The notes beneath the pieces are model-generated. The model was not told the DNA's origin and did no database searches. It saw nothing but the letters and a program-made list of their open reading frames with translations. Positions 8,000 through 46,400 of a DNA stretch of 64,000 bases are shown in pieces; the first letter of the stretch is position 1; every line of letters starts with the position of its first letter. Made by a program: the position numbers and the translations under genes. This DNA comes from Anolis carolinensis (Eukaryota), in assembly GCF_035594765.1 (NCBI RefSeq), contig NW_026943824.1, positions 8,450,317 to 8,514,316 of the forward strand. The letters run 5' to 3'.

Positions 8000-8021
8000 A
8001 GAGAGATTCCTCCCAGAGGGA

Positions 8022-8208
8022 GGTGCACCGTTCCTGGAGGCACTGCAATACCAGGTCGATGCGTGGAGTGGATGGAGCAAGCCCCTATTCCATCTCCCAG
8101 GCCCAAAAATCCATTTAATATATAGTCCTCAAATAGAGGACGTATCAGATATTAAACTGATAAGAACAGATACTACACTTGATCTTAGCCAAAAGGCCGA
8201 GAAGCGAT
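8022..8208 (-). ncRNA. RNU2: U2 spliceosomal snRNA
   Basis: The reverse complement reads ATCGCTTCTCGGCCTTTTGGCTAAGATCAAGTGTAGTATCTG...GGATTTTTGG (Sm site)...CCAGGAACGGTGCACC. It is full length (187 nt), and the branch-pairing GTAGTA is intact. Confidence 0.98.
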
Positions 8209-23900: not shown

Positions 23901-26900
23901 TCCGATTCGGAGACGAGGAATCCCGTGTTTCCAAGGGAGGCGATTCCGCCCCATTTCGAACTGTCGTTTTAAAGTTCCCTGAGAAAGTGAAGAAGAAGGA
24001 ACAGTTTTAAGTACAGTAGAGTCTCACTTATCCAACATTCACTTATCCAACGTATTTTTGTAGTCAATGTTTTCAATACATCATCATATTTTGGTGCTAA
24101 ATTTGAAAATATAATAATTACTACATAGCATTATTGCGTATTGAACTACTTTTTCTGTCAAATTTGTTGTATAACATGATGTTTCGGTGCTTAATTTGTA
24201 AAATCATAACCTAATTTGATGTTTAATAGGCTTTTCCTTAATCCCTCCTTATTATCCAACATATTCGCTTATCCAACATTCTGCCGGCCCGTTTATGTTG
24301 GATAAGTGAGACTGTACTGTAGCAGTAAAAATTCCAAGTTTTAGGAACATAATGACTCTAACAACGCATAAAAGGTAAAGGTAAAGGTTTCCCCTGACAT
24401 TAAGTCCAGTCGTGTCTGACTCTGGGGGTTGGTGCTCATCTCCATTTCTAAGCCAAAGAGCCGGCGTTGTCCGTAGACACCTCCAAGGTCATGTGGCCGA
24501 CATGACTGCATGGAACGCCGTTACCTTCCTGCCAGAGCGGTACCTATTGATCTACTTACATTTGCATGTTTTCAAACTGCTAGGTTGGCAGAAGCTGGAG
24601 CTAACAGCGGGCACTCACCCCGCTCCCCGGATTTGAACCTGGGACCTTTCGGTTAGCAAGTTCAGCAGCTCAGTGCTTTAACCCACTGAGCCACCGGAGG
24701 CATACTCTCTTTATAGAAAGAATAAGCGGCTGATGGGGAAAAGGAAGGGGCCTGGGGCTGTTAGGAATTGTGGGAATTGAAGTCGAAAACATCTGGAGGG
24801 CCCAAGTTGGCCCATGCCTGGCTTAAACCAGCCCCTTATAAGAGATACAGAACCATACATATTCTGTAATAATCAAATGTATGGGCATATAACATATATC
24901 ATGTGATTGTATGTTTTCCAGGCTGTATGGCCATGTTCCAGAAGCATTCTCTCCTGACGTTTCACCCACATCTATGGCAGACATCCTCAAACGTTGTGAG
25001 GATGCCTGCCATAGATATGGGCCAAACGTCAGGAGAGAATGCTTCTGGAACATAACCGTACAGCCCGGAAAACACACAACAACCCTGTGATTCCGGCCAT
25101 GAAAGCCTTCGACAACATATTTCTTGTGAATCTTGCACTTATATATTTTTTAATGTATGATTTCTTGCTTATTTCACATAGACTCATTATGTACAGGCAA
25201 AACACCTACACACTGCAGCTGACACACTCCTGAGTACAACACACACTTTGGGAAGTTCTGGTCTACACTTGGACCACCAACCAGTTAGCAAAATACATTC
25301 AAAAGCCTCTGCATTCACAGGAAGATTGGTAAATAAATGGCTGCTGTCATTCTTACCTTCAACATCGATCAATTTCTGATTGAGGACAATTTTGTTCACA
25401 TCATTGCCAAACATTCCCATCATTGAAGTTTTCACAATGGCTAGCAACAGTTTTTCTTCTTGCAGAAATATTTGCCTTTTGTCAGGTGTGACATTGATGT
25501 CAACAGATTCTAAATAAAATACATGCTTGTTTAAAATCAATTGCCAAATCAGGCTTTAACAAGGTTTTTATGACACTCAAGTTTTGTAGAAAAATACAGG
25601 TGACTCACCCGAGTCTGCACAGATGTTAAGAACCACAAACGGATATTGATGTCTGTTGTACATGTGGTACACTTCATTCACAAGTTTGGAAACCTGCCCA
25701 GGAACAAAAAAGTTATCCCAATTATGCCTGTCTTAAAAATAATAATTATATGCAGATAGCAGAAGATATGGGCTCAGTGCTGGAGTAAAAAGTTTAAAAA
25801 TTACTATCATTAAAGAGAACTTCAATGAGATAATGCAAGGTGTGCTGTGTTATATGTGGTTTAAAAAATTATTTAAAGGTTTGATTGGTTTTACTATGTA
25901 TTTTTAATAAGGTCTGTGTTTAATTCTATTTTAATGTGTGAATTTTAGTTTATATATTGTATGATTTTTAGTGTTAGTCACTTTGAGTCTTTGAAAGAGA
26001 AGACGTGGGTATATACAGTAGAGTCTCACTTATTCAACACTTGCTTATCCAATGTTCTGGATTATCCAATGCATTTTTGTAGTCAATGTTTTCAATACAT
26101 CGTGATATTTTGGTGCTAAATTCGTAAATACAGTAATTACTACATAGCATTACTGTGTATTGAACTACATTTCTGTCAAATTTGTTGTATAACATGATGT
26201 TAGGGCCGGGCTGTGGCACAGCTGGCTAGTAACCAGCTGCAATTAATTTCTACTGACCGAGAGGTCATGAGTTCGAAGCCCGGGTCGGGTTAAGCCCCCG
26301 ACCATTAAATAGCCCGGCTTGCTGTTGACCTATGCAGCCCCGAAAGACAGTTGCATCTGTCAAGTAGGGAAATTTAGGTACGCTTTATGCGGAGAGGCTA
26401 ATTTAACTAATTTACAACATCATAAAAACTGCCAGCAAAACACAAGGAAAGGAACGAGGAAGTACAGCCACTAGTGGACAGTGAAGCAACAGCTCCCCCT
26501 GTGGCCGGAATCGTGAAGCTGGAAAAAAAATGTTAAATGCCTCTGTGTCTGTCTATATATGTTGTTTGTCTGTTGGCATTGAATGCTTGCCATATATGTG
26601 TTCATTGTAATCCACCCTGAGTCCCCTTCGGGGTGAGAAGGGCGGAATATAAATACTGTAAATAATGTTTTGGTGCTTAATTTTTGAAATCATAACCTAA
26701 TTTGATGTTTAATAGGCGTTTCCTTAATTCCTCCTTATTATCCAACATATTCACTTATCCAACATTCTGCCAGCCCGTTTATGTTGGATAAGTGAGACTC
26801 TACTGTACTACTAATAATAATAACATGACAAGGATTTAAAGATCGAATTGCAAAGACTCTGGCACAAACCAGTCAAGGTGGTCCCAGTGGTGATCGGCAC

Positions 26901-27097
26901 ACTGGGTGAAATGCCCAAAGACCTTGGCCAGCACTTGAAAACAATCGGCGCTGACAAAATTACCATCTGCCAGCTACAAAAGGACACCCTACACACATTA
27001 TTCGCCGATACATCACATAGTCCTAGACACTTGGGAAGGGTCTGACGTGTGATCCAATACAACAGCCAACATAGTGATCTTATCTTGTTCTGTATCA

Positions 27098-27141
<44 letters not shown>

Positions 27142-27698
27142 CTTTGTTGGATCACAAGGCCGCTGATTAATAAAGAAGAACTGCCTGTCTGTGGTACTCC
27201 TTCCAATGCCATGATCACAACGGGAGACAAACCCTGTGATGCTGTTCAAAGTTCAAAACATAAAGAATAAGATAAGAAGAAAAGGAGGAAAAGCTATGGC
27301 AAGAATACTCCTTGGCCAAAGCATTCAGATTCCAAGATCCAAATGAATAAAGGTTTCTGACACATAGACAGCAGAGTGTATGGGGACACATAACATTAGT
27401 CCCTTTCCAGTGTATAGAAAGGTTTAAGTAGAAAACAGAGGGCTCTTCCACACAGCCATATAACCCAAAATATCAAGGCAGAAAATCCCACAATATCTGC
27501 TTTGAATTGGGTCACCTGAGCCCACACTGCTATCTATTCCAGTTCAAAGCAGATAAGGCGGGATTTTATTCAGCTGTGTGGAAGGGGCCTGAGAAATATT
27601 CTGGTATACTTTTTACAAAGTTGAGATGCAGTTTTAAAGAGGTGAATGGAAAATGCTTCAGATGTGAAGGAACATTGATATGCAATGTGGAACCTAGA

Positions 27699-27749
<51 letters not shown>

Positions 27750-28412
27750 TATTATTATGCCAAGTTCTAAAGAAACAGGCATTGTTTTCTCTATATACCG
27801 TATATACGCAAGTATAAGCCAACCCGAATATAAGCCGAGGCACCTAATTTTACCACAAAAACTGGGAAAACATTGACTTGAGTATAAGATGAGGGTGGGA
27901 AATGCAGCAGCTATGGGTCAATTTCAAAAATAAAATAGATATTAATAAAATTGCATTATTTGAGGCATCAGTAGGTTAAATGTTTTTGAGTATTTATATA
28001 AAATTGTAATTTAAGATAATAATAAGACTTTAATAAGATAAGACTGTCCAACTCTGAATACCTATATACTCAAGTATAAGCTGACCTGAATAGAAGCCGG
28101 CCAGGATCCTCACTCGAGTATAAGCCGAAGGGAGCTTTTCAGCCCTAAAAAAGGGCTGAAAAACTACGCTTATACTCGAGTATAACAATAAAAGTATTAT
28201 ATACAATTTAGAAAGACAATTATTTCCCCATGCAAATTATTTCCCCATGCAAAAAATAAAATGATGTCTATAAAGTTCACAGCATGAACTTTGCCACAAT
28301 GAGTTCAGAAAAAAGCTCCTATAACATTCAATCTTTTGATCCTGATGCTCTTAAAATGCAGGAAACGAACCCTGAAAACTGAATCCTCCATTAATCTTTC
28401 CGGATAAATATT

Positions 28413-28474
<62 letters not shown>

Positions 28475-31400
28475 TATACCCCACTTCCATCTCCCCGAAG
28501 GGACCCGGGGAGGCTTACATGGGGCGACAGCCCAGGCAAATACAATAAGAAACATAAAATACAGCAATTAACAAAAACCACGGGTGAATGGGAATAAACA
28601 ATTAACATAAAGATAGCAAAAATATTACTAAACAACATATTAAAATACAACAGTAGAATCATAAAAACCAACTGGGCAAAAGTGCACTAAGCGAGTTTTG
28701 TAAACATGAGGTAGTTGGTAAAGTGCTACAAAATCGTGGAAGATTTGGAGTGGGGTAAACCTTGTGGTTATAACAAAAAATTAACAAAAAAAAGGTGCAA
28801 CCAATTGGAAAACAGACACCGAAGCAAAATTTATCATGCAGATGGGGAGTTCTTATCCCCATCTATTGCTGCTGTGCTGTTTTAGCACAACAGCAATAGC
28901 CAGTGTGCCACATCCAGGTCTTTCACTCCATGCACTTTTCCCTTAAGCCTCATTGCTTTGCCTTTGTCCTCCAGGCTAAAAGGGAGAACATACAATCTTC
29001 TACTTACGTATAAAGCCTAGTGGGAATATCAGCAGGATTCAGACCATATTCCTCGCAGATGGCATCACTAGGAGGCAGCTGAACAAACGGGATCAGGCTT
29101 TGCACCTGGACAAGCAAAGATTTGACTTTATTTATACCTTTTATTTATTAAATTTATACCTTTCTGCCATGCTGAATCACACCACTATTTGTTCTGAACT
29201 CCTGTCTTTTCTTTCTGTATCATATCCCCTTTATATGTAGTGCATTCAATACTAAAAATTGGAAAATCAGGATAACAAAATCTATATATATAAAAGAGTG
29301 ATGGAATCACGGCACCAGACAAAACAACAAAACTACAGGCCCCCCAACCTCGAAATTTGACAAAACAACCCATCATCCACGGCTCTAGGTTGATACAACA
29401 AAAAGAAAAAAATAATAAAGTTCTAATTAGAGGGAGAGGAATAATTGCTTTTATCCAATTGCTGCCAGTTAAAAGGCTAAGCTCCTCCAACTTGGTCTCC
29501 TAGCAACCCAATAAAAAATAATAAAAAACACAAAAAATAATTAAAAACACTAAAAAATTAATACAATAAAATACTATAATAACATAAAATAACTAAAAAT
29601 AATACAAGAAAATAATAAAATATAATAAATAAAAAGATAACTTACAATAAAATTAATTTACAAATACAAATAACGTCAAATAAAAATTACACATCAATTT
29701 TTAACCAATACCACCACCACTTTGCCACAGCAACGCGTGGCCGGGCACAGCTAGTCTATATATATAAAAGGGTAATGAAATTTCGGCCTAGGACAAAACA
29801 ACAAAACTACACATCCCAGAAACACTAAACTTGGCAGCACAACCCCTCGTCCATGCCTCTACGTTCATACAACAAAAAGAAAAGAAAAATAAAGTCCTAA
29901 TTAGAGGGAGAGGAATAATTGTTTTTATCCAATTGCTGCCAGTTAGAAGGCTAAGCTCCGCCCACTTGGTCTCCTAGCAACCCACTCAGCCCAGGGGACA
30001 GGCAGAGTTAGGCCTCACTTAGGCCTCTTCCACACTGCCTATAAAATACAGATTATCTGATTTTAACTGGATTATATGGCAGTGTAGACTCAAGGCCCTT
30101 CCACAGAGCTATATAACCCATTTATAATAGTCTTAATGTAAGGTAAAAACCTTTACCCTTTACCTTAACTACCACCAGTTCCTCAATACTTTATTTCCCA
30201 TCCCACCATACTTCGCCACAGCAACGCGTGGCTGGGCACAGCTAGTACATTATAAATCTATCTCTGAATAACAAACATCAATGGAACATACTTATGCATA
30301 GATGAATCTGTAAGTCAAATAAATGAATTCAAAACCACAACCTCCAAACAAATAATATTCAAAACACAGGTCTTCACAAAGGACACATATGTTTAGAGAC
30401 ATGGGGTGGCAGTTCAAACCCGCGAAACGGGGTGAGCTCCCATCTGTCAGCTCCAACTCCTGCCAATCTAGAAGTTCAAAAACATGCAAATGTGAGTCGA
30501 TAAATAGGTACTGCTTCAGCAGGAAAAAGGCAAAAAGACACTCCAACCAATCTTGCTGGCCACACAACCAGGAGGTGACAACGCAGGCTCCTCGGCTTGA
30601 AAATGGAGAAATGAGCTCTAATGGCAGGAAAAGTAACAGTAGTGATAGTACCTGCTTTTGCCCAAATATTGCTCCGATGTTTTCTTTTACAGTAGAGTTC
30701 CCATTAGTGCATACAACAGGTTGCTTCTTCCCTTGACCAACCTGGTTGGTGCAAGTAATTCGAACTCCTGTTGAAACGATGCAGTAGGCTTGTAATACCT
30801 GAACCATTTTTGCGTACTCCTGGAGAAAATAAGCATGAAAACATTATTGTTTAGGAACTGTATCATGACAATCAAAATTACTATGCAACCAGGAATTAGA
30901 AGGCAACTGCAATTCCACCAGCTGTACCTTCTTTATGTTGCGCTGAAATTCTTTATGTCGCACTGGCAATGTATGGAAGAGCTGCTGCACGCTGACCGTT
31001 GTCCCTTGTTGACGGGGACATGGGACCTTCAGGGTGATTTTCCCGCCGTGATCAAACACCAGGCGTGTTCCAACCTTGGCGGACGTATGACAGGTGAAAA
31101 TGGAAACATCGCTGTAAACAAGTAAACAAAAACTAAGAAAAAAATATTAAATACAAATGTACAACAACAATGGGCTTTAAAACACTGGCATCTGCTTTTT
31201 TGTCTTTAACATGCCCTTCCATTCTCCTCCAGTAGTTTCCCCCAGGCAGTAAGCAGCCAGGCTTTGAAGCTGAAAGACCATTCAATGCTAATCAAGGTGA
31301 CCAATTGCAACATTCACACTTGCCTCAAACAGACAAGAGTTATTTCTCCCACCCCAGACATTATTCCACAGATGTATAAAACTCATTTCCAACAGACCTC

Positions 31401-33477
31401 ACAACTTCTGAGGATGCCTGCCATGGATGTGGGCAAAACACCAGGAGAGAATGCTTCTGGAACATGGCCATACAGCCCGGAAAACTCACAACAACCCACT
31501 GATTCCGGCCATGAAAGCCTTCGACAACACAGTTCATAAGCTCATAAGGTTTACAAATATTTTATCTATGGATTTGCCTTTCCAGAGAAGTATCTCACCT
31601 TAACGCACATAGAGAACTCAGAGCTTCACCTCGAAAGCCGAACGTTTCAACATTTATAAGGTCAGAGAAATCTTGTATCTTGGATGTATGATGTTTTAGA
31701 GCTGGAAGTTAAAACCAGAAACAGGGAATGTGTTTAGATTGCAGTTACTGTTAAAGTAGGAATGATTGTATATAGAATTGTTTAAATGTAATTAAGTCAT
31801 GGTGGTGCAATGTGTGCTGGAGATTGTATCATGCACTGTGTACTGTTTACTATGACAGTGTGTAAAGGGTTAAGTGCCTGCAAACTTGGATTGCATCAGA
31901 CAGCAGAGTCTGGGATAAATTGCCCTCTGCTTCCTATCTTTCTCTTCTCTGGATTCCTTCCCGTGTGTGCCTGTGTGAGAGCTGTGTATTGTTTTGTGGA
32001 ATTCCGTTCGTGAGTAAACTTTTGATAGAGAGCTGAAGACTCCAGCGTCATCATTTATCTAGTGTTTTCTCGTCAGTGACTTCTGCTGCGTGTGTGCCTA
32101 GCAAAATCGCGCTGACAGTTACCATTATCTCACAGCACTGGATTTACTGCCTCTGGCTAACAGTAATATCTGGCCACCTATTACATAGTGACCGCCAAAT
32201 GCAGCATTGCCCAAACACGAATCAAGGAACATGAAAGGCCAGAGAAGTCAGCCATAGAAGAGCACTTGATGAACCAACCTGGACACAGCATATTATTGGA
32301 GAACACAGCAATGCTGGGCCACTCTAACAACCACCAGACTACTTAAACTTACTTAAGCCAGCAAAGTTTTCCTCTTCGACGCCACAACCGTTATCAGAAA
32401 CTTCAATGAGATCTGCGCCATAATCTTTCAGCTTTACTTCTACAAAACATAAAGATTATTTGTTAGTCAAAGCATTTAAATTTTTAAAAAGTTACAAGGC
32501 ACCTCTCAACATACCTCTGCTGTTGACAATCTGGTGGCAGTTGAAGTTAAACTGCACTTTTAGAAAAATATCATGGGGCAGCATTTTATTGGGGGGGGGG
32601 GGGGAACAATACCCTTATATTGCTCCTTGGAGATGTAGTTTGTCAGATATGACACCATAACGCCCATTGGATCCAACTAGCATAGCCAGCGATGGAGAAC
32701 AATGGAAACCATGGTCCAACAATATCTTACAGCCACGTAATACTTTTGCAGGTTTGTGATCCCACCAGTTCTTTGTTGCTGGGAGGTGGTACTTGAGGCA
32801 TAAGTTCCAATGGATCATTTGGGCCACATAGTTGTGCCTCTGCTAGTAGTCTGTCTGTGCGATTTTGTTACAGCAGCTGAGGATATGATCAATGGTTTTG
32901 TCGGTTTCCCTGCACAGTCTGCATTTTGGGTCATCAGCTGATTTTTCGATCGTGGCCTTAATTGCATTTGTTCTGATGGCTTGCTCCTGGGCTGCAAGGA
33001 TCGGGCCTTCTGTCTCCTTATTCAGGGTCTCATTCGTGAGCCAGAGCCAGGTCTTCTCCTTATCAGCTTTTCCTTCAATTTTGTCAAGGAACTTTCCATG
33101 CAATGTTTTGTTGTGCCAGCTGTCGGCTCTAGTTTGTAGTGCGGTTTTCTTGTACTGGTTAATAATAATACAGTAGACTCTCACTTATCCAACATAAACG
33201 GGTCGGCAGAATGTTGGATAAGCGAATATGTTGGATAATAAGGAGGCATTAAGGAAAAGCCTATTAAACATCAAATTAGGTTATGACTTTACAAATTAAG
33301 CATCAAAACATCATGTTATATAACAAATTTGACAGAAAAAGTAGTTCAGTACAAAATAATTCTATGTAGTAATTACTGTATTTACAAATTTAGCACCAAA
33401 ATATCACGATTTTTTGAAAACGTTGACTACAAAAATGCGTTGGATAATCCAGAATGTTGGATAAGTGAGACTCTACT

Positions 33478-33513
<36 letters not shown>

Positions 33514-36500
33514 TTATATGGCTTTGTGGAAGGGCCCTGAGATGCTGTTAAAACTTCAACTCCCAGAAGCTCTCGACACCACGGACAAGAGCTAAAAATT
33601 CTGGAAATTGCAGTCCAAAAACAACCTTTATCATGCGTTTAATACTATGCTATACCATACCATCAATTTTGTATTAAATATTGAAAGACAATCATGATAA
33701 CCAACATCGTCCCCGAAAGCAAAGATTTCGAAATGAGCCCCAAAACTTACCCACAGTTGTGGCACCGGCGTCGATACTATTTTCCACCAGCTCTTTCACC
33801 GCCGTACATAGATTCAGCACCACTTGTCCGGAGCATATCTGGTGAACCGATCTACGGTCTATTGGCTTGATGGCTTTAGCAGACTCTGCCCTTTGAGCAA
33901 AAACACAAACAGCATTACTTTTCCAAGTTCAGCGGGATATAGAAGCAATAGGGTGCATTTTAGAAGGGATTCGATGAAGAAAATGTGGTGCCAGAGTTAC
34001 CAGACATGGTATCTATCTATCTATATATATATAAAAGGCTTTTGGCATCATGGCGACTCACAAAACAACAAAACCCCAAACCCCCCAAACTCAAAAATTG
34101 CCAACACAATCAATCATCCCCGCCTCAAGTAAGATACAACACAATTACACTAAAAACACAATCACAACAGCAACAACCACAACAGGCGACCAGGTACTCT
34201 TCACCCACCCCTGAGCCTTCCCTCCAGCTGTTTTCAACTTCAACTCTCACCATTCCTAACACCTTAACCTTCTGAGAGAAAAAAACAAAAGGGACTCAGG
34301 CTGTTACGAATGCTGGGAGTTGAAGTCCAAACCACCTGCAGCAGGCCCATGCCTGTATCCCAGGGTACAGACAAACTGCATTTAGACCTCATCCATACTC
34401 ATCCATACTACTGTCCCTAGAAAATACAGATTATCTGATTTCAACTCCATTATGTGGCAGTCTACACTCAAACCCCTGCCACACAACAATATTACCCAGA
34501 ATACCAAGGCACATCTGCCAATATCTCCTTTAAACTGGATTATCTACCTTGGTATGCTAAATAATATTCCTCTGACATCGCCTTCACTCTACACTGCCAT
34601 CTAATCCAGTTCAGTCTACATTTTATACAACTATGTACAACTGACCTCATATAATCCAATTCTAACCACCTAATATAACATTATAAATATAATATATAAG
34701 ACTTACTATGGTATAATAATAGAAAACAATATGATCTCTAAAACCAGGAGACGAAATAAAGACCAACACTCGGAAAGCAGGGAAATTGGGAATTCTACAA
34801 ACGAAACAATTGGGGCCAGCTAACACTTCCCAACAAAACATTCCTCCAGACAGTAAACAAACACCCTTTCAACCTGCAAGGCCATTAAAAACTAATCAAG
34901 GTGGCTAATTCCATCATTTAAACCTCCCACGCCGACACTATTAATTCCTATTCAAACTCACCAACCAAGGATTCCGCAAGGTAAAAACCGACCAGGCTTA
35001 CAACCATCAAGCCTATTCAATACTTTTCAACCAGGCCAACCAACATTTCCCCTACATACAAAACCCCCAAACTCTGAAACCACAACACTACTCTGTCCCA
35101 TTCAACCTCGCCTAGCAACAATACCTTATGTGCAAACCAACCAGGCGTTTAACCTACAAACCTATTCAATACCATTCAATCTGGCCAAACAAGAATTCCC
35201 CTACTAAGGAAGTACCCACACTTCAAAGCGCCTCTTTGATTAATGCTACGACTCCAACCACTCTGTTGTCGATCGCACTTTGGGGGATCGGGCCCTTAAA
35301 GAGAGACCCGACCCGGTCCTGAGGGAACGGACCTTGGCGAAGCCAAAAGGAGAATATAAGCCGCAATACAACCTGAAGCCTGAAATGAAGAAGGTCCGCC
35401 AAGTTGAAGGAAAATCCGCCAAGGAGTTTTTATTGAGCAATTCAGCTGAAAAGGACGCTAATAGTGATCATTCAATCTACTAGTGTAACATACGTTTCAA
35501 ATAAAGCCATATTTATACAATGTTTCGGTCTGACAGCCCTTTGAATTTCCCGCCCCGCTTCCCCGCCCATCCGATCGCGGATAGGCTGGGAGGTTGAACG
35601 AGGCGGGCTTTCGTTTCCCGCCTTGCTCTGCTGGCCCAATGGGGAGCCGTTTTTTGTCCCCCCTCGGGCCAATCAGAGAGGAGGAGGCGGGAGCTATAGA
35701 AACAATGAGGTGACCGGACAGGAAACATCGGATTAATTCTGGCCCAGCCGATTTCTAAAGGAATTTAATGGCACCCATCAAGGGTGTCCGGGGTCCTGTC
35801 ACGTTTTCAGATTTTAGATATGCCTTGGGGTGTCAGACGGGAAGTGGTGATGGGTGGTGATGAGCCGCCATTGACGGCCCCACAGGGTGCCTTCCAGCGG
35901 CGTCCTGGCCTGGGATATGACGATGTTTGCCTTGGGGGCGAGTCACCTTTAGGAATTTGGTGACTCTAAACCCTATATTGTCCATGCGATCGGAATGAGA
36001 TTGGATTAAACTGTGGCAGATTATCCTTTTGTTTTTGGGAAGGGAGGTCTGGGTCATGGAGCTAAGGTTCACGTTGGGGTCATAATATTTCCCATTTGAT
36101 TTCATGATTTGACAATTATATGGGATAAAATGAAAATTAAAATAAAGTTGGAACATAAACCCAGCTGGGAAAAACACATATTTTCCGGGGATCCCAAAGA
36201 GTATAAATACATATTAGCCGATAGGTAGATTTCAAGGAAATAAAGGAGAATCCATAAAGGTAGGTGACATTGCATAAAGGGGAATCATGAATGATATAAA
36301 CAATAGAAAACATTTGATAAAAACGAAGTTTACAACATCTGGGGAACCCAATATAGAAGTGGAGTCCTAACAGTATGATTTCACAATTCATGAAGTTGTT
36401 ATCTCTTGCCTCAGAGTGCAGGGATAATCCACAGTAAACTCCAGTAAAAAGTCCCAATCACCTTCTACTATAAATATATGGAATATAGAACATAAAGTCT

Positions 36501-38854
36501 TGATTTTTGAACTATCTTTTACAAAGTCCTGGAGGGGAGGTCACCTCGATCACATTTTCCCCCCTTCGGGGCTTGGAAATGGCTATGAACATTTCCCAAA
36601 GCCCCGACATTTCACTGCATGCAGGGCCTCTGCCTTGGTAGATCAGATTGTGCCTTTTTGTTGGAGGGCAGGAGCTTGAAGAGGTGAAAGCTGAGGTTCA
36701 GTCAGTGGTGGGTGATCCCATGGTGTTGAAACAGATGTCCCTTGGTCTGGAGTCATGGGAAATGGAGCATGAAGGTGGAGGTGGTGAGGGCTGGGGATGA
36801 TGGAGGCTGTGATGCAGTACTCCCATTTGGCTGCCTTTTCTTGGCTGCAGCTTGGGCCCCCCTTTGTAGTTGGCAGCTGGGGGCAACTGGGCACAGCTTC
36901 TGCGCCTCACAGCACGGCGCCTCCTGGTGACTGCAGGCAGGTCCAGCACTCCAACAGAGGAGACGGAAAGGAGAGAGTGCCTAGGGAAACTAAGGACAGA
37001 TTATAAGCCCCCCCTCCCTCCCGTGGTGGGGTTAGTCAGGGAAGTCACTCATACCTTGTGAGGGCTCCAGCAGTCCTGGGGTCCTTCTTTGGCACAGCTC
37101 TGGTGAAAGTGGAACATCCTTCCCTCATGGTGGTCACTGGTAGAATCCTGTTCATTTCTTCTGGGACATCTTCTGCCATGGCGGCCAATTCTGTCCCCTG
37201 GTGATGTCATGAGGGCCTCCTTGGCAGCGTCAAAGGCAGACCTGCACTCAGTAGCCCTTTGCCAGGGCAGAACCAGGCCAGCTGGAGGGCACCATACGGT
37301 GGTCTGGCCATAAAAGCCTGCCATGTGCAAGAATCCTTTCAGCAGTGTCTTAGTCTCTAGCCCCTGAGCCAGGCAGATGGGGCTGCTTCCCCCGTTGGGG
37401 TCTCAGATCAGCCCCAGGTGGGGCTGTCTCTTCTGGGTGACTGGGGGTCCGGGCTTACCCTCACAGGACCATCTCCAATGGCCTCTGGGTTCTAGCTGCT
37501 GCATGAAATCCACAGCGCACTCCGAGAGCCCCTACCCAGGTCTTAGAACTGTTCATGGTGGCAGGTATGGATTATGGGTCTTGCAGTCTGGTCTGATGTC
37601 CTCAGTCAGGTGGTTGGGTCCGGTCCTCTGGATCTCTTCAGCTGTGCCTGGAAGGTCCCCTGGACTCTGTACTGCCCCCCCCTCATAATTAAAGGCAGTT
37701 AGAGGGATTTTTAAAACATTCACACGCATGCACTCAGGGAAAGGGAGGGAGAAGGACCCGAAAGGAAGAAAGGAGATTGTTCGGGAACTGTGGAGAGTGA
37801 AAGAGTGCCTTCACTATAAAAGTAAACCAGGATTTTGACTGAATGTTTATAAGGAGAAATGGGGATGCTGGGAAGGAAGGGGGGGGGGGAGCTTTGAAAA
37901 AGGAGAATGTTGAAGTGCATTTCGGCCTAGGAAAACATGAAGTGGAAGAGAGAGAGAGAGAGAGAAAAAAAACTCACATATAGAAAAATACATCAATTCT
38001 TCCATCCCCCCCTTTTCTCTCTAAGATAAGGGAGGCTTGAGGAGAGAGAGACAAGAAAAAGTTAAAACCACAGAAGCAGCAGGTTTTCTCTGGGGGGGGG
38101 GGTCTCACAAAATATTAGGGCTTGAACCTTTGAAAATAGGGAGGTGAGATGGCACAGAAGAAAAGGGAGAGAGAGAGAGCATAGCACTAAGCTAGTCCAT
38201 TCCAGCCCTCCTTCCCAGAAAACTATATATCACTGGTGGCTTTTAAGGCAAAGGGATGAGTAGAGAAGAGTTTACAGCCCACACATTACATAAACACACA
38301 AAATTTAATCAACACTTTTCTGGGAGTCCCCTTCCCCCACCCAAATCCTTTGCCATGCTTCCCAGATGGGAAAGAAAGAAAAAGGGGAAATTAAGAAACA
38401 GAAGCGGCTAAAGGAATGGCCCCCCTCCCCCCTTTTGTAAGGACCAAAGGAAATATAAGACAACACTGAGGTAAAATCTTAGGGATAGTGTCTAGAAAAT
38501 GGGAACAAAGGGAAATAAGGGATTTTAAAAGGTGAGAAGAGAGGAAGGAGAGGAGAAATGGATTTGAGATTTGAGGGAGAGAGAGAGATTTTCACTCAGG
38601 CCGGGGAAGAGAGAGAGAGAAAAGAAAAAAAGGGTACAATTTGAGGGTAGGCAAGGCAGAATATCAAGTTGGAGAAGATTTGATTTGAAAGAAGGAAGCA
38701 ATCCTTGGAGAACTATAGATCTTGGTGGCAGGCTTCAGGACTGAATCTTCTCCCCCCTTTGCCCCTCCAAAAACAGGAAGAGGAAAAAAGTGTCCTCTTT
38801 GCACAATCTCCCCGCGGCCCCTCCTTCTCCTCTCTCTCCAAGAGAGGAATGAGC

Positions 38855-38914
<60 letters not shown>

Positions 38915-41900
38915 TGGTGGGGGCAAGAGAAGGAGGGGGATGGTGGGGCGATTCTTCCCATCTGAGGAAAACTCAGAATGTGGCAGGAGTTGAGTGGCAG
39001 GGGCAGATACAATTTGGGGGGGGGGGCATCAGGCTTCAAAGGAACGGCTGGGATGGGGGCTGAGAGAGTGTGACTTGAGAAGAGGAACAGTGTTTTGGAT
39101 CAGGTGTGTTTCGAGGTGAGAGGGGAGGGGGCTGGGAGCCCTCCTTCACGTTAGACTGGGCTGAACTCTCTGGAGGGGAATTTCTTGGGGGGGGGGATCC
39201 CTGAAGTAAGGGTTCCCTTGGAAGGCCAATTTGGGAGTCCTGGATCAGTGTAGGACTCAGGGTGAGGAGAAAAGGTGGGGATGGGGATTGGAGGAGGGGG
39301 CTGATGGGGTGGGGAGAAGGCAAGCAAATGTGTCCAGAAAATCCTCTGGAGGAGGGGGTAAGGGGAAAAGGGTCTAGGGGGGAATCTTTGGGGGGCTGTT
39401 TTTGGAGCCCAAATCTCTGCATGGGAAGACGTGGGCCCCCCTCCCCCCCTCCGATTCTCTCCCTGGCTTAGGGCCATGAACATTGCAGCATAAGCAAGTT
39501 GGGACCACTTGCCCTCCCCCTGGCGAGTCACCTTAGGTCAACACTCCGAATTCGGCGACTCGAGCAAGGGGGGGGGCAAGCTGTTCCCCCTTCAAGGGCC
39601 ACAAGGGGCCACTTATGTGCTCTGAGTTAGCCCAACCTGGCCTGCACCATGTTTTTTGATGCAAAGCCCACCCCAATTGGCCAGGATCTTACCCAATGGA
39701 GAATCCCTGGGGATGTCTGCTGGGGTGGGACACCCTAGACGTGCTTGAACAAACACCCATCCTTGGCTCAGCCCCTGCCCAGTACCTGACAGTTAATGGA
39801 GTAACGACTCACCCACCGGCTGGATGCAACTCGTCCTTTCAAGAGTTCTCCCTACACCAAGGCTGAATGGCTGGCGTTCGTGGGATCCGCAGGTGCCCCG
39901 GGAACACAATCGTTCCCCTACCCCACGATCCTAGAACCTGTAATCTTACAAGCCAGACTGTTCTCACACACCACCGGGCGCCAGATGTTCCCGCGTTTCA
40001 CCAGGAATTTGTTACCGAGCCCTGATCCGAAGTGCAATACCTCCAGAACTCCGCCCACCTGGGTCTTAACAACGGGGCCGGTTCCCTTTTATTTTTACAG
40101 GGCGTCCCCTGTTTCACGTTGGCGCCTTTCCTTCGAGGAGCTAAAAATCTGCTTCCTCCTATCTGGCTCCTTTGTTCAGTACCCTGAATCAGATCTAGAG
40201 AGAGAAAGGGGCTGCCAGAGAAATTTGGATGTGAAATGAGGTCAATTTGTTGGTCGGAGGGCCCTCCTTGCAGCCGTTTCTCTCCCCAACCTGTCCCAGA
40301 ATATCTGGACCAAGGTTGCCGCTTGGAATTTTAGCCTAGAAATTGATCTTTGGAACTTCCAAGCAAGTCCCTTCGTGGTAAAGCCAAATTATGTTGTCGA
40401 TCGCACTTTGGGGGATCGGGCCCTTAAAGAGAGACCCGACCCGGTCCTGAGGGAACGGACCTTGGCGAAGCCAAAAGGAGAATATAAGCCGCAATACAAC
40501 CTGAAGCCTGAAATGAAGAAGGTCCGCCAAGTTGAAGGAAAATCCGCCAAGGAGTTTTTATTGAGCAATTCAGCTGAAAAGGACGCTAATAGTGATCATT
40601 CAATCTACTAGCGTAACATACGTTTCAAATAAAGCCATATTTATACAATGTTTCGGTCTGACAGCCCTTTGAATTTCCCGCCCCGCTTCCCCGCCCATCC
40701 GATCGCGGATAGGCTGGGAGGTTGAACGAGGCGGGCTTTCGTTTCCCGCCTTGCTCTGCTGGCCCAATGGGGAGCCGTTTTTTGTCCCCCCTCGGGCCAA
40801 TCAGAGAGGAGGAGGCGGGAGCTATAGAAACAATGAGGTGACCGGACAGGAAACATCGGATTAATTCTGGCCCAGCCGATTTCTAAAGGAATTTAATGGC
40901 ACCCATCAAGGGTGTCCGGGGTCCTGTCACGTTTTCAGATTTTAGATATGCCTTGGGGTGTCAGACGGGAAGTGGTGATGGGTGGTGATGAGCCGCCATT
41001 GACGGCCCCACAGGGTGCCTTCCAGCGGCGTCCTGGCCTGGGATATGACGATGTTTGCCTTGGGGGCGAGTCACCTTTAGGAATTTGGTGACTCTAAACC
41101 CTATATTGTCCATGCGATCGGAATGAGATTGGATTAAACTGTGGCAGATTATCCTTTTGTTTTTGGGAAGGGAGGTCTGGGTCATGGAGCTAAGGTTCAC
41201 GTTGGGGTCATAATATTTCCCATTTGATTTCATGATTTGACAATTATATGGGATAAAATGAAAATTAAAATAAAGTTGGAACATAAACCCAGCTGGGAAA
41301 AACACATATTTTCCGGGGATCCCAAAGAGTATAAATACATATTAGCCGATAGGTAGATTTCAAGGAAATAAAGGAGAATCCATAAAGGTAGGTGACATTG
41401 CATAAAGGGGAATCATGAATGATATAAACAATAGAAAACATTTGATAAAAACGAAGTTTACAACATCTGGGGAACCCAATATAGAAGTGGAGTCCTAACA
41501 GTATGATTTCACAATTCATGAAGTTGTTATCTCTTGCCTCAGAGTGCAGGGATAATCCACAGTAAACTCCAGTAAAAAGTCCCAATCACCTTCTACTATA
41601 AATATATGGAATATAGAACATAAAGTCTTGATTTTTGAACTATCTTTTACAAAGTCCTGGAGGGGAGGTCACCTCGATCACAACTCCACAAAACGGCCAG
41701 ACTTTCACGCTACAAGGCTATTCACTCCTTTTCCACCTGGCCAACAAATAATTCCCATAAGCCACAGCAACGCGTGGCCGGGCAAAGCTAGTATTATATA
41801 TAGAGATATATATTGAGAGAGAAGGCAAGGGGAACTATTGGCCCTGCAGGTGTTTTGGACTCCAACTCCCAGCATGCCTCACAGCCTCAGGCCCTTTCCT

Positions 41901-42066
41901 TTTCCCCCTCAGCCGCTTAAGGGGGAAAAGGAAAGGGCCTGAGGCTGTGAGGCATGCTGGGAGTTGGAGTCCAAAACACCTGCAGGGCCCAAGTTTGCCC
42001 AGGCCTGACATAGATGCAGACATACATACACAGACCACAATAACATTACCTTGGAGCAATCTCCAT
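11727..42066 (-). CDS. PMS2: Mismatch repair endonuclease PMS2 (MutL-alpha subunit), 15 coding exons, 845 aa
   Basis: Exons 42066-42050, 33890-33751, 32439-32353, 31701-31599, 31111-30928, 30819-30652, 29105-29008, 27241-27142, 25693-25609, 25509-25357, 23978-23159, 19580-19413, 17997-17897, 14434-14265 and 11870-11727 (total 2538 nt). All introns are GT-AG and in phase. GHKL motifs [16 protein letters not shown] and GFRGEAL; endonuclease motif [12 protein letters not shown]; ACR; CPHGRP. Confidence 0.97.
12236..13156. mobile_element. Tc1/mariner-superfamily non-autonomous element (TIR CCGTATATACTCGAGTATAAGCC)
   Basis: TIRs with TA flanks; second copy at about 27797-28183. Confidence 0.7.
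13157..14060. repeat. AT-rich minisatellite (about 160-bp unit)
   Basis: AGTGGTATAGTACA recurs at about 13320, 13641, 13803 and 13981. Confidence 0.8.
14678..16336 (+). mobile_element. Sauria SINE split by L1
   Basis: tRNA-like head (GGTTCGAATCC), core GAGTAGATCAATAGGTAC and (ACCTTT)n tail. Confidence 0.75.
14816..16080 (+). mobile_element. 5'-truncated L1 (ORF2 C-terminus, 3' UTR and polyA) inserted in a Sauria SINE
   Basis: 13-bp TSD GAAAACATGCAAA (14803-14815 and 16081-16093). Degenerate CWKC..H..C knuckle. AATAAA plus A-tail. Confidence 0.85.
16705..17367 (+). mobile_element. Solo LTR inserted in a LINE/SINE tail
   Basis: TG...CA termini with imperfect TSD GTCAC/GTCCC. Similar to 1482-2260. 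Confidence 0.65.
18119..18628 (-). mobile_element. Non-autonomous Helitron (second subfamily)
   Basis: Reverse-complement TC...CTAG termini; near-identical to 29755-30245. Confidence 0.85.
18650..19335 (+). mobile_element. Sauria SINE split by a solo LTR
   Basis: Head at 18650-18744; body resumes at 19100. Confidence 0.75.
18745..19099 (-). mobile_element. Solo LTR nested in a Sauria SINE
   Basis: 5-bp TSD CTCCT; reverse-complement paralog of 31749-32117. Confidence 0.75.
19715..19955 (+). mobile_element. CR1 LINE 3' fragment
   Basis: AACATTAGGAAGAACTTCC...GGATGGCCATCTG...; degenerate (ATTCTATG)-type tail. Confidence 0.7.
21219..21510 (+). repeat. 112-bp tandem repeat, about 2.6 copies
   Basis: TTAGAGTGTTTGC at 21221, 21333 and 21445. 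Confidence 0.9.
22356..23071. mobile_element. hAT-type MITE
   Basis: TIR CAGGGGTCC...GGACCCCTG with 8-bp TSD CTCTACTG. Related copies at 20847-21218 and about 21640-22177. Confidence 0.85.
24372..24701 (-). mobile_element. Sauria SINE
   Basis: Full-length paralog of 9376-9696. Confidence 0.8.
26203..26665 (+). mobile_element. tRNA-derived SINE (Anolis SINE2-like, with L2-type tail) nested in a mariner MITE
   Basis: Box B-like GAGTTCGAAGCC and tail CCCTGAGTCCCCTTCGGGGTGAGAAGGGCGG. It interrupts MITE 26016-26805. Confidence 0.65.
26825..27100 (+). mobile_element. R4/Dong-like non-LTR retrotransposon 3' fragment within (TAA)n
   Basis: Translation [20 protein letters not shown]...QLQK (C-terminal restriction-like endonuclease region), flanked by TAA repeats. 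Confidence 0.7.
29281..30245 (+). mobile_element. Two head-to-tail Helitrons (29281-29754 and 29755-30245)
   Basis: Junction ...CACAGCTAG|TCTATATATATAAAAGGG; each unit has both termini. Confidence 0.85.
31749..32117 (+). mobile_element. Solo LTR in PMS2 intron 3
   Basis: TG...CA termini with 5-bp TSD GTTAC. Confidence 0.8.
32740..33160 (-). mobile_element. R4/Dong-like LINE fragment (CCHC knuckle region)
   Basis: [16 protein letters not shown]...[18 protein letters not shown]. Confidence 0.75.
35264..36554 (-). repeat. 3' LTR of the ERV
   Basis: Preceded by the PPT on the minus strand. TATAAAT at 35517-35511, AATAAA at 35434-35429, and GC, CCAAT and E2F-like (TTTCCCGCC) boxes at 35540-35700. 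Confidence 0.95.
36900..37400 (-). pseudogene. pol: Decayed pol remnant (RT thumb/connection, possible integrase scrap)
   Basis: [18 protein letters not shown] and [17 protein letters not shown] resemble RT thumb/connection motifs. No YxDD and no long ORF. Confidence 0.6.
39036..39760 (-). pseudogene. gag: Frameshifted retroviral gag remnant (matrix plus proline-rich region)
   Basis: MGVCSS (myristoylation consensus) at 39760, then in other frames [11 protein letters not shown] and [16 protein letters not shown]. These resemble class-I ERV matrix motifs. A Pro-rich segment follows; multiple stops and frameshifts. Confidence 0.75.
40392..41682 (-). repeat. 5' LTR of the ERV
   Basis: Direct repeat of 35264-36554 at an offset of 5128. 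Minus-strand TATAAAT at 40645-40639 and AATAAA at 40562-40557. Confidence 0.95.
41840..41989. repeat. Palindromic hAT-like MITE
   Basis: Perfect inverted arms of about 69 bp around a short CTCAGCCGCTTAA loop. Confidence 0.85.
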
Positions 42067-42939: not shown

Positions 42940-43400
42940 GTAAAAAGAAACCCCGCCTTCTCCATTCAGAGAGACCAATAGGACGAAGGCTAGCCCTCGA
43001 ATGACCAATGGGAGAAGAGGAGAGGGGCTGTGGATGGGCGGGTCATGTGCCTCTCCTCCAATCGGCAAGGCGGGGCGTGAGGGGCCTTCCTCGTGTGAGC
43101 CAGTCGGGCGGGAGAGCGACCGGGCGCCGGGTGCGGGGCCTTTTTGCGCCTCAGATGCCGATGTACAAGGTGAGGCCCTTCCAGGGCGGGCCGGGCTCCG
43201 CGGTGCCGCCCGAGCACCTCCCCACTTGCATGTACCGCCTCGGCAGCGTCCACCGGGAGCCCAAAGCCGGTCCCTCGCCGCCGGCGGAGCAGGTAGGAAG
43301 CAGGCCTCGGCCTTCAAGGGCCCGTCCTGAGGCGAGGGAAGACGCCTGCCTTCGTGGCGCTTTCGCTTTCAGTCCAGAGGAGGCGGTTTGGTGGCCTGTG
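42940..43400. promoter_or_regulatory. CpG-island promoter of AIMP2 (part of the PMS2/AIMP2 divergent promoter region)
   Basis: GC- and CpG-rich, with several CCAAT boxes and GGGCGG boxes, and overlapping AIMP2 exon 1. Confidence 0.8.
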
Positions 43401-46400
43401 TTTCTGTATCTCTGTAAAATAGAAGGGCGTTTTGTATACCTCTCATTTCATTCATGAAGATGGGTGTATATATGTACAGTAGAGTCTCACTTATCCAACA
43501 TAAACGGGCTAGCAGAATGTTGGATAAGCGAATATGTTGGATAATAAGGAGGCATTAAGGAAAAGCCTCTTAAACATCAAATTAGGTTATGATTTTACAA
43601 ATGAAGCACCAAAACATCATGTTAGACAACAAATTTGGTAGGAAAAGTAGTTCAATACGCAGTAATGCTATGTAGTAATTACTGTATTTATGAATTTAGC
43701 ACCAAAACATCACGATATATTGAAAAAATTGACTACAAAAATGCGTTGGATAATCCAGAACGTTGGATAAGAGAGTGTTGGATAAGTGAGACTCTACTGT
43801 ATTTATTTATTTACGACATTTATATCCCGCCCTTCTCACCCCGAAGGGGACTTAGAGCGGCTTGCAAATTTATACAGTACTCACTTATCCAACATAAACG
43901 GGCCGGCAGAATGTTGGATAAGTGAATATGTTGGATAATAAGGAGGCATTAAGGAAAAGCCTATTAAACATCAAATTAGGTTATGATTTTACAAATGAAG
44001 CACCAAAACATCATGTTAGACAACAAATTTGGCAGAAAAAGTAGTTCAATACGCAGTAATGCTATGTAGTAATTACTGTATTTATGAATTTAGCACCAAA
44101 ATATCACGATATATTAAAACATTGATTACAAAAATGCGTTGGATAATCCAGAACGTTGGATAAGAGAGTGTTGGATAAGTGAGACTCTACTGTATTGCAA
44201 TATTAGTAATATTATATGTAATATGTAATTAATATTGAATTATATTAATATTAGTATTATACTGTAATACATTACAACATTATTATCAATAAAAAGGTAA
44301 AGGTTTCCCCTGACGTTTAAGTCCAGTCAAGTCTGACTCTGGGGGTTGGTGCTCATCTCCATTTCTAAGCCAAAGAGCCGGCGTTGTCCGTAGACATCTC
44401 CAGGTCATGTGGTCAGCATGACTGCATGGAGCGCCGTTACCTTCCCGCCAGAGCGGTACCTATTGATCTACTCACATTTGCATGTTTTCGAACTGCTAGG
44501 TTTGCAGGAACTGGGCTTAACAGCGGGCGCTCAATCCGCTCCTGGGATTTGAACCTGGGACCTTTTGGTCCGCAAGTTCAGCAGTTCAGGCCTTTAACAC
44601 ACTGTGCCACCAGGGACCCCCTATTGTACTATACCACTATACTATAATATTAGTAATATTATATGTAATATGTAATATATAATTAATATTATTACATTAT
44701 ATTATTACAGTAGAGTCTCACTTATCCAATGTTCTGGATTATCCAATGCATTTTTGTAGTCAATGTTTTCAATACATCATGATATTTTGATGCTAAATTC
44801 GTAAATACAGTAATTACTACATAGCATTACTACGTATTGAACTACATTTTCTGTCAAATTTGTTGTTAAACATGTTTTGATGCTTAATTTGCAAAATCAT
44901 AACCTAATTTGATGTGTAATAGGCTTTTCCTTAATCCCTCCTTATTATCCAAGATATTTGCTTATCCAATGTTCTGCCGGCCCATTTATGTTGGATAAGT
45001 GAGACTACTGTATTAGTATTATACTGTAATACATTACAATATTATTATCAATATTATTATTATTAATTTAATTTATATACCGCTCTTCTCCCCCAGGGGG
45101 ACTCAGAGCGATCTTACATAATGGCAAGATTACTGCCACATATATTACAAAATATAGTAAAAACCAACAATCATACAACACACTTAAAAACCAATATCAT
45201 ACCCAATTAAAATATTAAAACACTGTGTGACCATTACAATAGGGCCAGAGCATTGGGCCAAACATCAGAGCCAGTCTATATTCAACTTCACATTAATCCA
45301 ACAAATACATCAGGTTATTGTAGATACAATATATTATATTATTATATATTAAGGTAAAAGTAAAGGTTTTCCCCTGACATTAAGTTTAGTTGTGTCAGAC
45401 GCAAGGGGTTGGTGCTCATCTCCATTTCTAAGCCGAAGAGCTGGCATTGTCCGTAGACACCTCCAATGTCATGTGGCCAGCATGACTGCATGGAGTGCTG
45501 TTACCAGGGCCACCAGGAACCCCATATATGTATGTGTCTGTATATATATATATATATACATTCATACAGTACGATGACTGAATTTTCATTGAGCTAAGTG
45601 AACGATAATCTAAATCTTAATTTAGGATGAAGTTGATCCGTCCCTTCAAGCTCTTGAATCCCGCCAGGAAGAGATCTTAAAGCGTTTGTATGAATTGAAG
45701 GCTGCTGTAGATAGCCTCTCCAAGATGATCCAAACACCAGATGCAGATTTTGATGCTACAAACATAATCCAGGCGGACGAACACGTTCCTTTAACTGCCA
45801 GTTCTGCAGACCTGGATAATTTACTTGGAAAGGCAAGTCCAGATTAACCTTGTCGTGGGAGAGCATTTCCTGTCTAGTGAGTAGATTAGCCGGGAAGAAG
45901 CTTCTGTGTGAAGTAACAAAGCTGTGACATTCTGGGAAATTGCAAACGTTTAGAATTTTTTCTCAGTCCCAGGCAGTCTGCTTCTGCTAAGCAACAGCTA
46001 TTTTTAAGCAGGTGTTGTTGTTTTGCTTCTTTGTAGAATATTGCCACTTTGTATGTTAAATTGCTGTTTTAAATTCTAAAAATCCAGCACTGAATGTGAT
46101 AAATGGGTTGGGTCAAGATACAGACGGACTGAATGGCTCTTAGCCAATGCATTGACACAGTTAGGAAGCCAAGTTCAAAAGCCTTCAATATAAAACATAT
46201 TCCTTTGGCTATATGTGTCTCTCAAGCAATTGCCTTGAGGTTTATAATAATAATAATAATAATCATCATCATACTTTATTTAAATCCTTCTCTATCTCCC
46301 AGTGAGGTGCAAATATGTGAACGGTTTATGAACCCTATGTTTTGCCGCTAGTAAAGAGAAGACCCTTCCTACAGTAGTAATTGCATTATTATTCTGGGAG

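Follow-up and report, generated by a model that had tools for sequence, protein, structure and literature searches.

Long terminal repeat (LTR) elements with dead genes that are moved in trans are known from VL30 and MaLR/THE1, which the lizard family treated here resembles by description. Three further systems are close to it and are compared here. In mouse ETn/MusD, a non-coding element has its LTRs and primer tRNA in common with a coding partner (PMC7472051; PMC1331978), the commonest primer binding site (PBS) mismatches the tRNA while perfect sites occur throughout the tree, where they have been proposed to be tRNA-copied reversions (PMC7472051), and intronic insertions lie in sense (PMC1331978). 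In koala recKoRV1, the 5' LTR and gag leader of a young gammaretrovirus (up to position 1177) are followed by an older element without coding capacity and then again by the young 3' end, and the recombinant was remobilised with target site duplications (TSDs) (PMC6112702). When Lys3 and Lys5 sites interchange in HIV/SIV, a heteroduplex PBS gives progeny either the tRNA's or the parent's sequence, and two isodecoders are visible (PMC4549124). In each of these points they can be compared with a provirus in a 64,000-nucleotide stretch of Anolis carolinensis (NCBI RefSeq assembly GCF_035594765.1, contig NW_026943824.1, positions 8,450,317 to 8,514,316, forward strand; the window). As the best explanation of all the data, the provirus is probably a recent insertion of a gamma-like family of endogenous retroviruses (ERVs) that is chimeric and non-coding, mobilised by coding sister elements and primed by tRNA-Arg(TCG) at a mismatched site that is maintained by selection. 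Young LTRs around a dead interior are an already known kind of element (ETn- or recKoRV-like); the addition here is the record of the primer site, with a count of the matching share and its placement at the tips of the tree.

The element occupies 35264-41682 on the minus strand, as set by the placement of the PBS and the polypurine tract (PPT). Two direct LTRs with TG...CA ends are flanked by a 4-bp TSD, ACTC (35260-35263 and 41683-41686), a bulged PBS begins 5 nt past the 5' LTR, and the PPT lies ahead of the 3' LTR. LTR-LTR comparison gave 1291 bp for both copies, no indel and a single difference (0.08%, 1 in 1291 bp), T at 35484 versus C at 40612 in a CpG site, in agreement with a first-pass annotation of this DNA, which had noticed by eye the same single CpG transition and an intact TSD. 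In a survey of this site across 72 LTRs, of which 32 were unreadable with the motif used, the base of the 5' LTR was found in 39 of the 40 readable ones; the mutation was therefore placed in the 3' LTR, most likely the mutated copy. With an uncalibrated substitution rate of 1-2e-9 per site per year, the insertion would be about 0.2-0.4 million years old, with a wide upper bound of 1-2 million. An old insertion with LTRs homogenised by gene conversion, or a duplication created during assembly, is a general possibility for such a pair, but here a very improbable one and already largely refuted: the 4-bp TSD is perfect, the LTR of the window copy is unique (closest other LTR 97.8% identical), each of dozens of copies scattered over the genome has a near-identical LTR pair of its own, with TSDs that differ between copies, and an uninterrupted target with one ACTC, the empty form of 35259-41683, is bridged by contigs in four of four runs (X3, X6, X7 and X16). 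As the depth of these contigs (234-1430) reflects the multi-copy repeat that forms both flanks and not this locus, they were rejected as a sign of polymorphism. The left junction (35265-35269) had no contig in runs X3, X6, X10 and X16, a hole in the filtered contigs that was not used as evidence.

The 3837-bp interior lacks coding capacity. Its longest stop-to-stop frame has 144 amino acids, 12 interior and 2 LTR frames gave nothing better than E 0.13 in Pfam, and LTR frames of 106-126 amino acids found no Pfam support as genes. Aligned to a coding relative, the gag stub spans 192 codons and shows 19 indels, of which 16 break the frame, and protein comparison left a single scoring reverse transcriptase (RT) scrap at 37199-37378 and no env match in the interior. 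The frameshifted gag and pol scraps, the (AG)n tract, counted here as (AG)28, and the missing env of the first-pass annotation were all recovered, but not as the remains of one decayed gag-pol: judged from its sequence, the interior combines an old with a young part, and the term long-dead coding sequence applies to the 3' 2.6 kb, which is foreign to the coding family, and not to the gag stub, which is 83% identical to a young gag. A search for further copies of the same degenerate interior returned many. Among 56 listed matches in the same genome, 21 cover the entire interior at 93-100%, and at least 62 fetched loci have the 3' interior of the window copy (53 of 95 in one set, 9 of 25 in another), showing that the dead interior is propagated in one piece, while the cis parts are intact. 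Both LTRs were present at 36 of 42 loci examined; 14 of these 36 pairs showed no substitution and 21 at most one, the oldest having 14-19, and a matching 4-bp TSD, consistent with class I, was found in 31 of the 36. This LTR-pair and TSD record makes the window copy typical of its family and not an isolated case. Median identity among 35 copies was 98.2% for the 3' interior, 91.9% for the LTRs and 93.6% for the leaders. Longer, mostly older members have about 830 bp extra near 39058-39090, which the window copy is without; the family therefore shortened while spreading, and unlike recKoRV1 as described, the anole recombinant has been amplifying long enough for deletion subfamilies. This segment, rejected as a capsid on comparison, also occurs in an env-type tier of the same elements. 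The family was not described in the literature listings; Repbase and Dfam, which lay outside this search, may well hold it.

Three tiers can be distinguished, namely a coding family, the env-type tier and the non-coding tier of the window copy. The coding family has LTRs of about 2 kb, and 34 of 34 scored matches were 98-100% identical across 4.4 kb of gag-pol. Open gag (681-696 amino acids), pro-pol (1249) and a short env (432) were found in 8 of 10 copies examined, and LTR pairs 99.85-100% identical in 9 of 10. Its Pfam domains (Gag_p30, RVT_1, rve, MLVIN_C and TLV_coat, the latter with E 4e-11) and the closest solved RT, which is of murine leukaemia virus type (E 2e-204), assign the family to class I, gamma-like ERVs, as far as can be judged from these relatives. 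Gag and pro-pol lie in one frame across a TGA stop, with YIDD and one zinc knuckle (3 copies); CX6CC is present in env, and the CXXC, furin and immunosuppressive domain patterns were unmatched in 3 of 3. ETn/MusD is beta-type, Lys-primed and env-less; the anole family differs in being gamma-like, in having env and in its likely Arg(TCG) primer. At the gag-pro junction of the same number of coding copies, the TGA of gag is followed by CTAG in frame with pro; TGA-CTAG is a read-through context. The env-type tier has the same LTR and leader with foreign filler replacing most of gag-pol; env is whole in L047, L050 and L051 (422-433 amino acids open, no pol) and partly deleted in many relatives, and the leader of the window copy matches env-type copies at up to 98%. 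The search for a helper proposed with the first reading led to a young coding family whose PBS, leader and greater part of the LTR recur in the window copy. As its genes are dead but its cis signals intact, its TSDs are of integrase type and it has this young partner, the non-coding family is best read as packaged, reverse-transcribed and integrated in trans, with the proteins of the coding sister family as the likely agents. The earlier proposal of a trans-mobilised copy is supported to this extent by the copies with the same interior and by the coding family.

Identity to the coding family is 88-89% over element positions 158-2490. Outside these, no match was found for the other 2.6 kb, for the PPT or for the 157 bp with which U3 begins. 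CpG observed/expected falls from 0.76 in the LTR part common to both families and 0.36 in coding pol to 0.13-0.19 in the 3' interior, and this poverty is as expected after long residence in methylated DNA. With young ends and an old foreign middle, as in recKoRV1, the non-coding family reads as a chimera of a young gamma-like LTR body, PBS, leader and gag stub with an older, foreign 3' part. In contrast to recKoRV1, the 3' switch lies inside U3, so that PPT and LTR tip are foreign, and searches that scored the best 40 candidates found no donor. The family may have originated by an RT template switch between a derivative of the coding family and the RNA of an older dead element, which would have supplied the 3' interior, PPT and U3 tip. 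Positions 1-430, 431-860 and 861-1290 of the LTR are each closest to different sister copies; segment exchange is therefore ongoing, and LTR segments would still be swapped.

The context of this PBS occurs at 305 exact genomic sites. Two tRNA-Arg(TCG) genes were found, and 41 of the 305 sites match the end of this host tRNA perfectly (95% confidence interval 10-18%): the two short PBS forms, G (33 sites) and A (8 sites), each pair fully with one of the two. The first 100 sites listed comprise 85 of the bulged TTT form, 14 matching and 1 other variant, and TTT predominates in all three tiers. The commonest PBS is mismatched, and perfect sites are scattered. This is the picture of ETn/MusD, unlike which the anole mismatch is a length change common to all tiers. 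tRNA-Arg(TCG) is likely the primer at the mismatched site, to judge from the pairing. As one strand receives a copy of the tRNA during retroviral reverse transcription, about half of the progeny of a mismatched site are expected to be converted (PMC4549124); plain strand segregation would thus give 50%, whereas the matching share is 13%. For the mouse, 50:50 is a speculation of the review (PMC7472051); the corrected share and the tip-only placement are counted here. An equilibrium of primers without selection, as for Lys3/Lys5 in HIV/SIV, would predict scattered minority tips and a share under 50% (PMC4549124) if a second primer matching TTT restored that form and minority use of tRNA-Arg(TCG) gave the 13%. 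In HIV/SIV, however, the majority form matches the main primer (PMC4549124), whereas T-loop-anchored patterns gave only the two canonical tRNA genes and none matching TTT. A pattern for the TTT-matching end without the following C hit 1 locus with no preceding T-loop, versus 2 control matches. The assembly may be missing tRNA copies, which weakens this negative, and the equilibrium is still quite improbable. No tRNA gene was found in the window and four element loci, and one other tRNA pattern gave 0 matches. An apparent excess of matching sites among the older copies of the non-coding tier (5 of 15, against 1 of 23; p 0.027) rested on hand counts in copies chosen by similarity and was not relied on. 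A second PBS-like motif with a Lys-type start was seen by eye about 400 bp into the leader (39975-39992, minus strand).

In a tree of 131 leaders, from which 5 rows with interrupted leaders and 4 without PBS were dropped, the 31 matching copies need 27 changes. Shuffled labels gave a mean of 28.1 changes (161 of 500 as low as 27), while the number of changes never exceeded 15 when neutral inheritance of corrections was simulated 3097 times. An earlier tree (16 changes, 17 matching copies) held 3 rows with interrupted leaders and is superseded. Four sister pairs differ in the PBS and are otherwise 99.8-100% identical over 1 kb (L181/L021, L027/L145, L169/L128 and L121/L050), two of them among the closest kin of the window copy. 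From tips scattered beyond the neutral simulation and from these pairs, the matching copies are read as fresh corrections, likely made by the tRNA at each cycle and seldom giving rise to lineages. Chance could produce the same scatter if a few TTT source loci had made nearly all copies, so that the pattern reflected activity and not selection; amplification from source genes is common, and near-identical clusters exist. Leaders, however, differ by a median of 6% and up to 13% across the three tiers while LTR pairs mostly differ by less than 1%, which implies many successive cycles, and with a loss of 13% per cycle only 6% TTT would be left after 20 cycles. Chance is therefore an unlikely source of the pattern.

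For the preferred explanation, selection at the mismatched site, each cycle would yield a heteroduplex PBS, about 13% of insertions taking the tRNA sequence and the rest keeping the bulged parental form, and corrected copies would seldom serve as parents. The likeliest cause would be host silencing of the perfect PBS via 3' tRNA fragments or a PBS-binding repressor, and escape from PBS-directed silencing has a precedent in mouse (PMC7472051; 10.1101/2025.05.12.650695). In its full form, a mutation-selection balance in all tiers, in which the tRNA rewrites the bulged site each cycle, germ-line repair mostly restores the parental strand (hence 13%) and corrected copies are silenced, this account is tentative, and we regard it as possible and not as probable. 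The main alternative cause leaves family and helper unchanged: a perfect site would lock into a stronger U5-PBS hairpin and prime worse, TTT being favoured for RNA structure. Local folds gave -18.4 kcal/mol and a defined U5-PBS stem for a perfect-site copy (z -1.46) and -10.1 and -11.7 kcal/mol for two TTT copies (z +1.3), and in three sister pairs the perfect form was 5-8 kcal/mol more stable, roughly as much as the 7.8 kcal/mol by which TTT pairs less well with the tRNA. These are predictions, however, neither fold is clearly apart from shuffles, and a perfect PBS is the norm in retroviruses. Nucleocapsid moreover melts such stems, and we consider the hairpin a somewhat doubtful cause.

Several points weigh against selection at the mismatched site or against the proposed origin and helper. 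A matching share of 13% instead of 50% is a difficulty for this explanation; repair might take its direction from the still unjoined plus-strand end of a new provirus. Silencing is a hypothetical cause of the TTT advantage, and the A form can also come from G by CpG decay. Two pairs of matching-PBS coding copies are well supported (L095/L170 and L123/L183), and the nearest neighbour is matching in 9 of 31 matching copies (7.2 expected); corrected copies therefore sometimes have descendants. Sampling for the tree was uneven (31 of 41 matching versus 99 of about 263 other sites), recombination blurs the leader tree, and the correction rate is assumed in the simulation to scale with branch length. 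No donor of the 3' interior emerged, genome searches scoring the best 40 candidates having returned family members or nothing. Trans-mobilisation, as also proposed at first pass, is a prediction from sequence. A second, unrelated young gamma-like family (L061-L072, L156-L158) is a possible alternative helper, with 150 scored capsid matches and long open gag, pol and env in some copies. As its gag is only 29-33% identical and it has no LTR or leader sequence in common with the window copy, it is a less likely helper than the coding sister family; as a donor of the 3' part it was rejected (3 loci, no useful DNA match, weaker RT match of 34-35%).

The family is a countable natural test of whether PBS mismatches are selected to evade silencing, as proposed for mouse (PMC7472051), and of heteroduplex PBS repair versus plain segregation, which is debated (PMC4549124); sister copies identical over 1 kb except for the PBS are ready-made controls. 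If true, the mutation-selection balance would mean that defence aimed at the PBS is not confined to mammals, and the 305 copies would document in nature how a germ line resolves a heteroduplex PBS.

Table 1. Features of the provirus and of neighbouring host frames (window positions).
Feature	Position	Strand	Remarks
Frame with early PMS2 coding exon (residues ~8-54)	33695..33928	-	E 9e-19
TSD ACTC, left copy	35260..35263	.	
3' LTR, one CpG transition at 35484	35264..36554	-	AATAAA at 35434
PPT, unlike that of the coding family	36555..36566	-	
3' interior, no DNA match to coding family	36555..39182	-	CpG observed/expected 0.13-0.19
Degenerate reverse transcriptase scrap	37199..37378	-	43% over 72 amino acids, E 8e-9
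(AG)28 microsatellite	38857..38912	.	
gag 5' stub	39193..39760	-	83% identical to coding relative; 16 frame-breaking indels
5' leader common to coding and env-type families	39761..40366	-	packaging signal presumed
PBS for tRNA-Arg(TCG), bulged TTT variant	40367..40386	-	predicted pairing 4 bp + 3x1 loop + 13 bp
5' LTR, 1291 bp, TG...CA	40392..41682	-	TATA-like at LTR position 1038; AATAAA at 1121 (window 40562)
U3 tip, 157 bp, unmatched in the coding family's LTR	41526..41682, also 36398-36554	-	
TSD ACTC, right copy	41683..41686	.	LTR/TSD comparison
Frame with AIMP2 N-terminal domain, first coding exon	43005..43457	+	AIMP2 start near 43.15 kb

The provirus lies between PMS2 (exons at 23125-33928, minus strand; coding exons at 30.3-33.9 kb) and AIMP2, which stand head to head across a GC-rich stretch, upstream of the PMS2 exon in Table 1 and in sense to PMS2. 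Candidates for PMS2 exon 1 were seen near 42.2 and 43.0 kb, neither of them certain, so that a sense position in PMS2 intron 1 is inferred. The provirus brings three AATAAA signals. Among mutagenic intronic insertions of ETn type, 15 of 16 have the same orientation as the gene, and they usually truncate transcripts (PMC1331978); an inferred sense position in intron 1 of a mismatch-repair gene would be such a setting.

The TSD sequence ACTC recurs in 4 of the 36 copies with both LTRs (L024, L025, L031 and the window copy, where it has the opposite orientation). Head-to-tail arrays of these elements were seen at L056/L057, at 38.796-38.806 Mb of G000:C1, at 21.44-21.46 Mb of C2 and at 12.18-12.19 Mb of C6; an array on C3 has a 14-kb period, telomere-like repeats and a frame of 1345 amino acids carrying RNA-binding domains of ZCCHC3 type. 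Nested in members of the ERV family is a chromodomain Gypsy element whose 978-bp LTRs are nearly identical (L054:1984-8408; L042/L043). Adjoining the right TSD, a 150-bp palindrome (about 41836-41985, 96% self-complementary) lies in a very high-copy repeat. The flank repeat may be Penelope-like; an Rfam scan of the window left it unmatched and returned U2 only, a full-length small nuclear RNA match at 8018-8208 (minus strand, 193 bits). A 315-amino-acid frame with ankyrin repeats at 51763-52710 (plus strand) is, presumably from synteny, ANKRD61.

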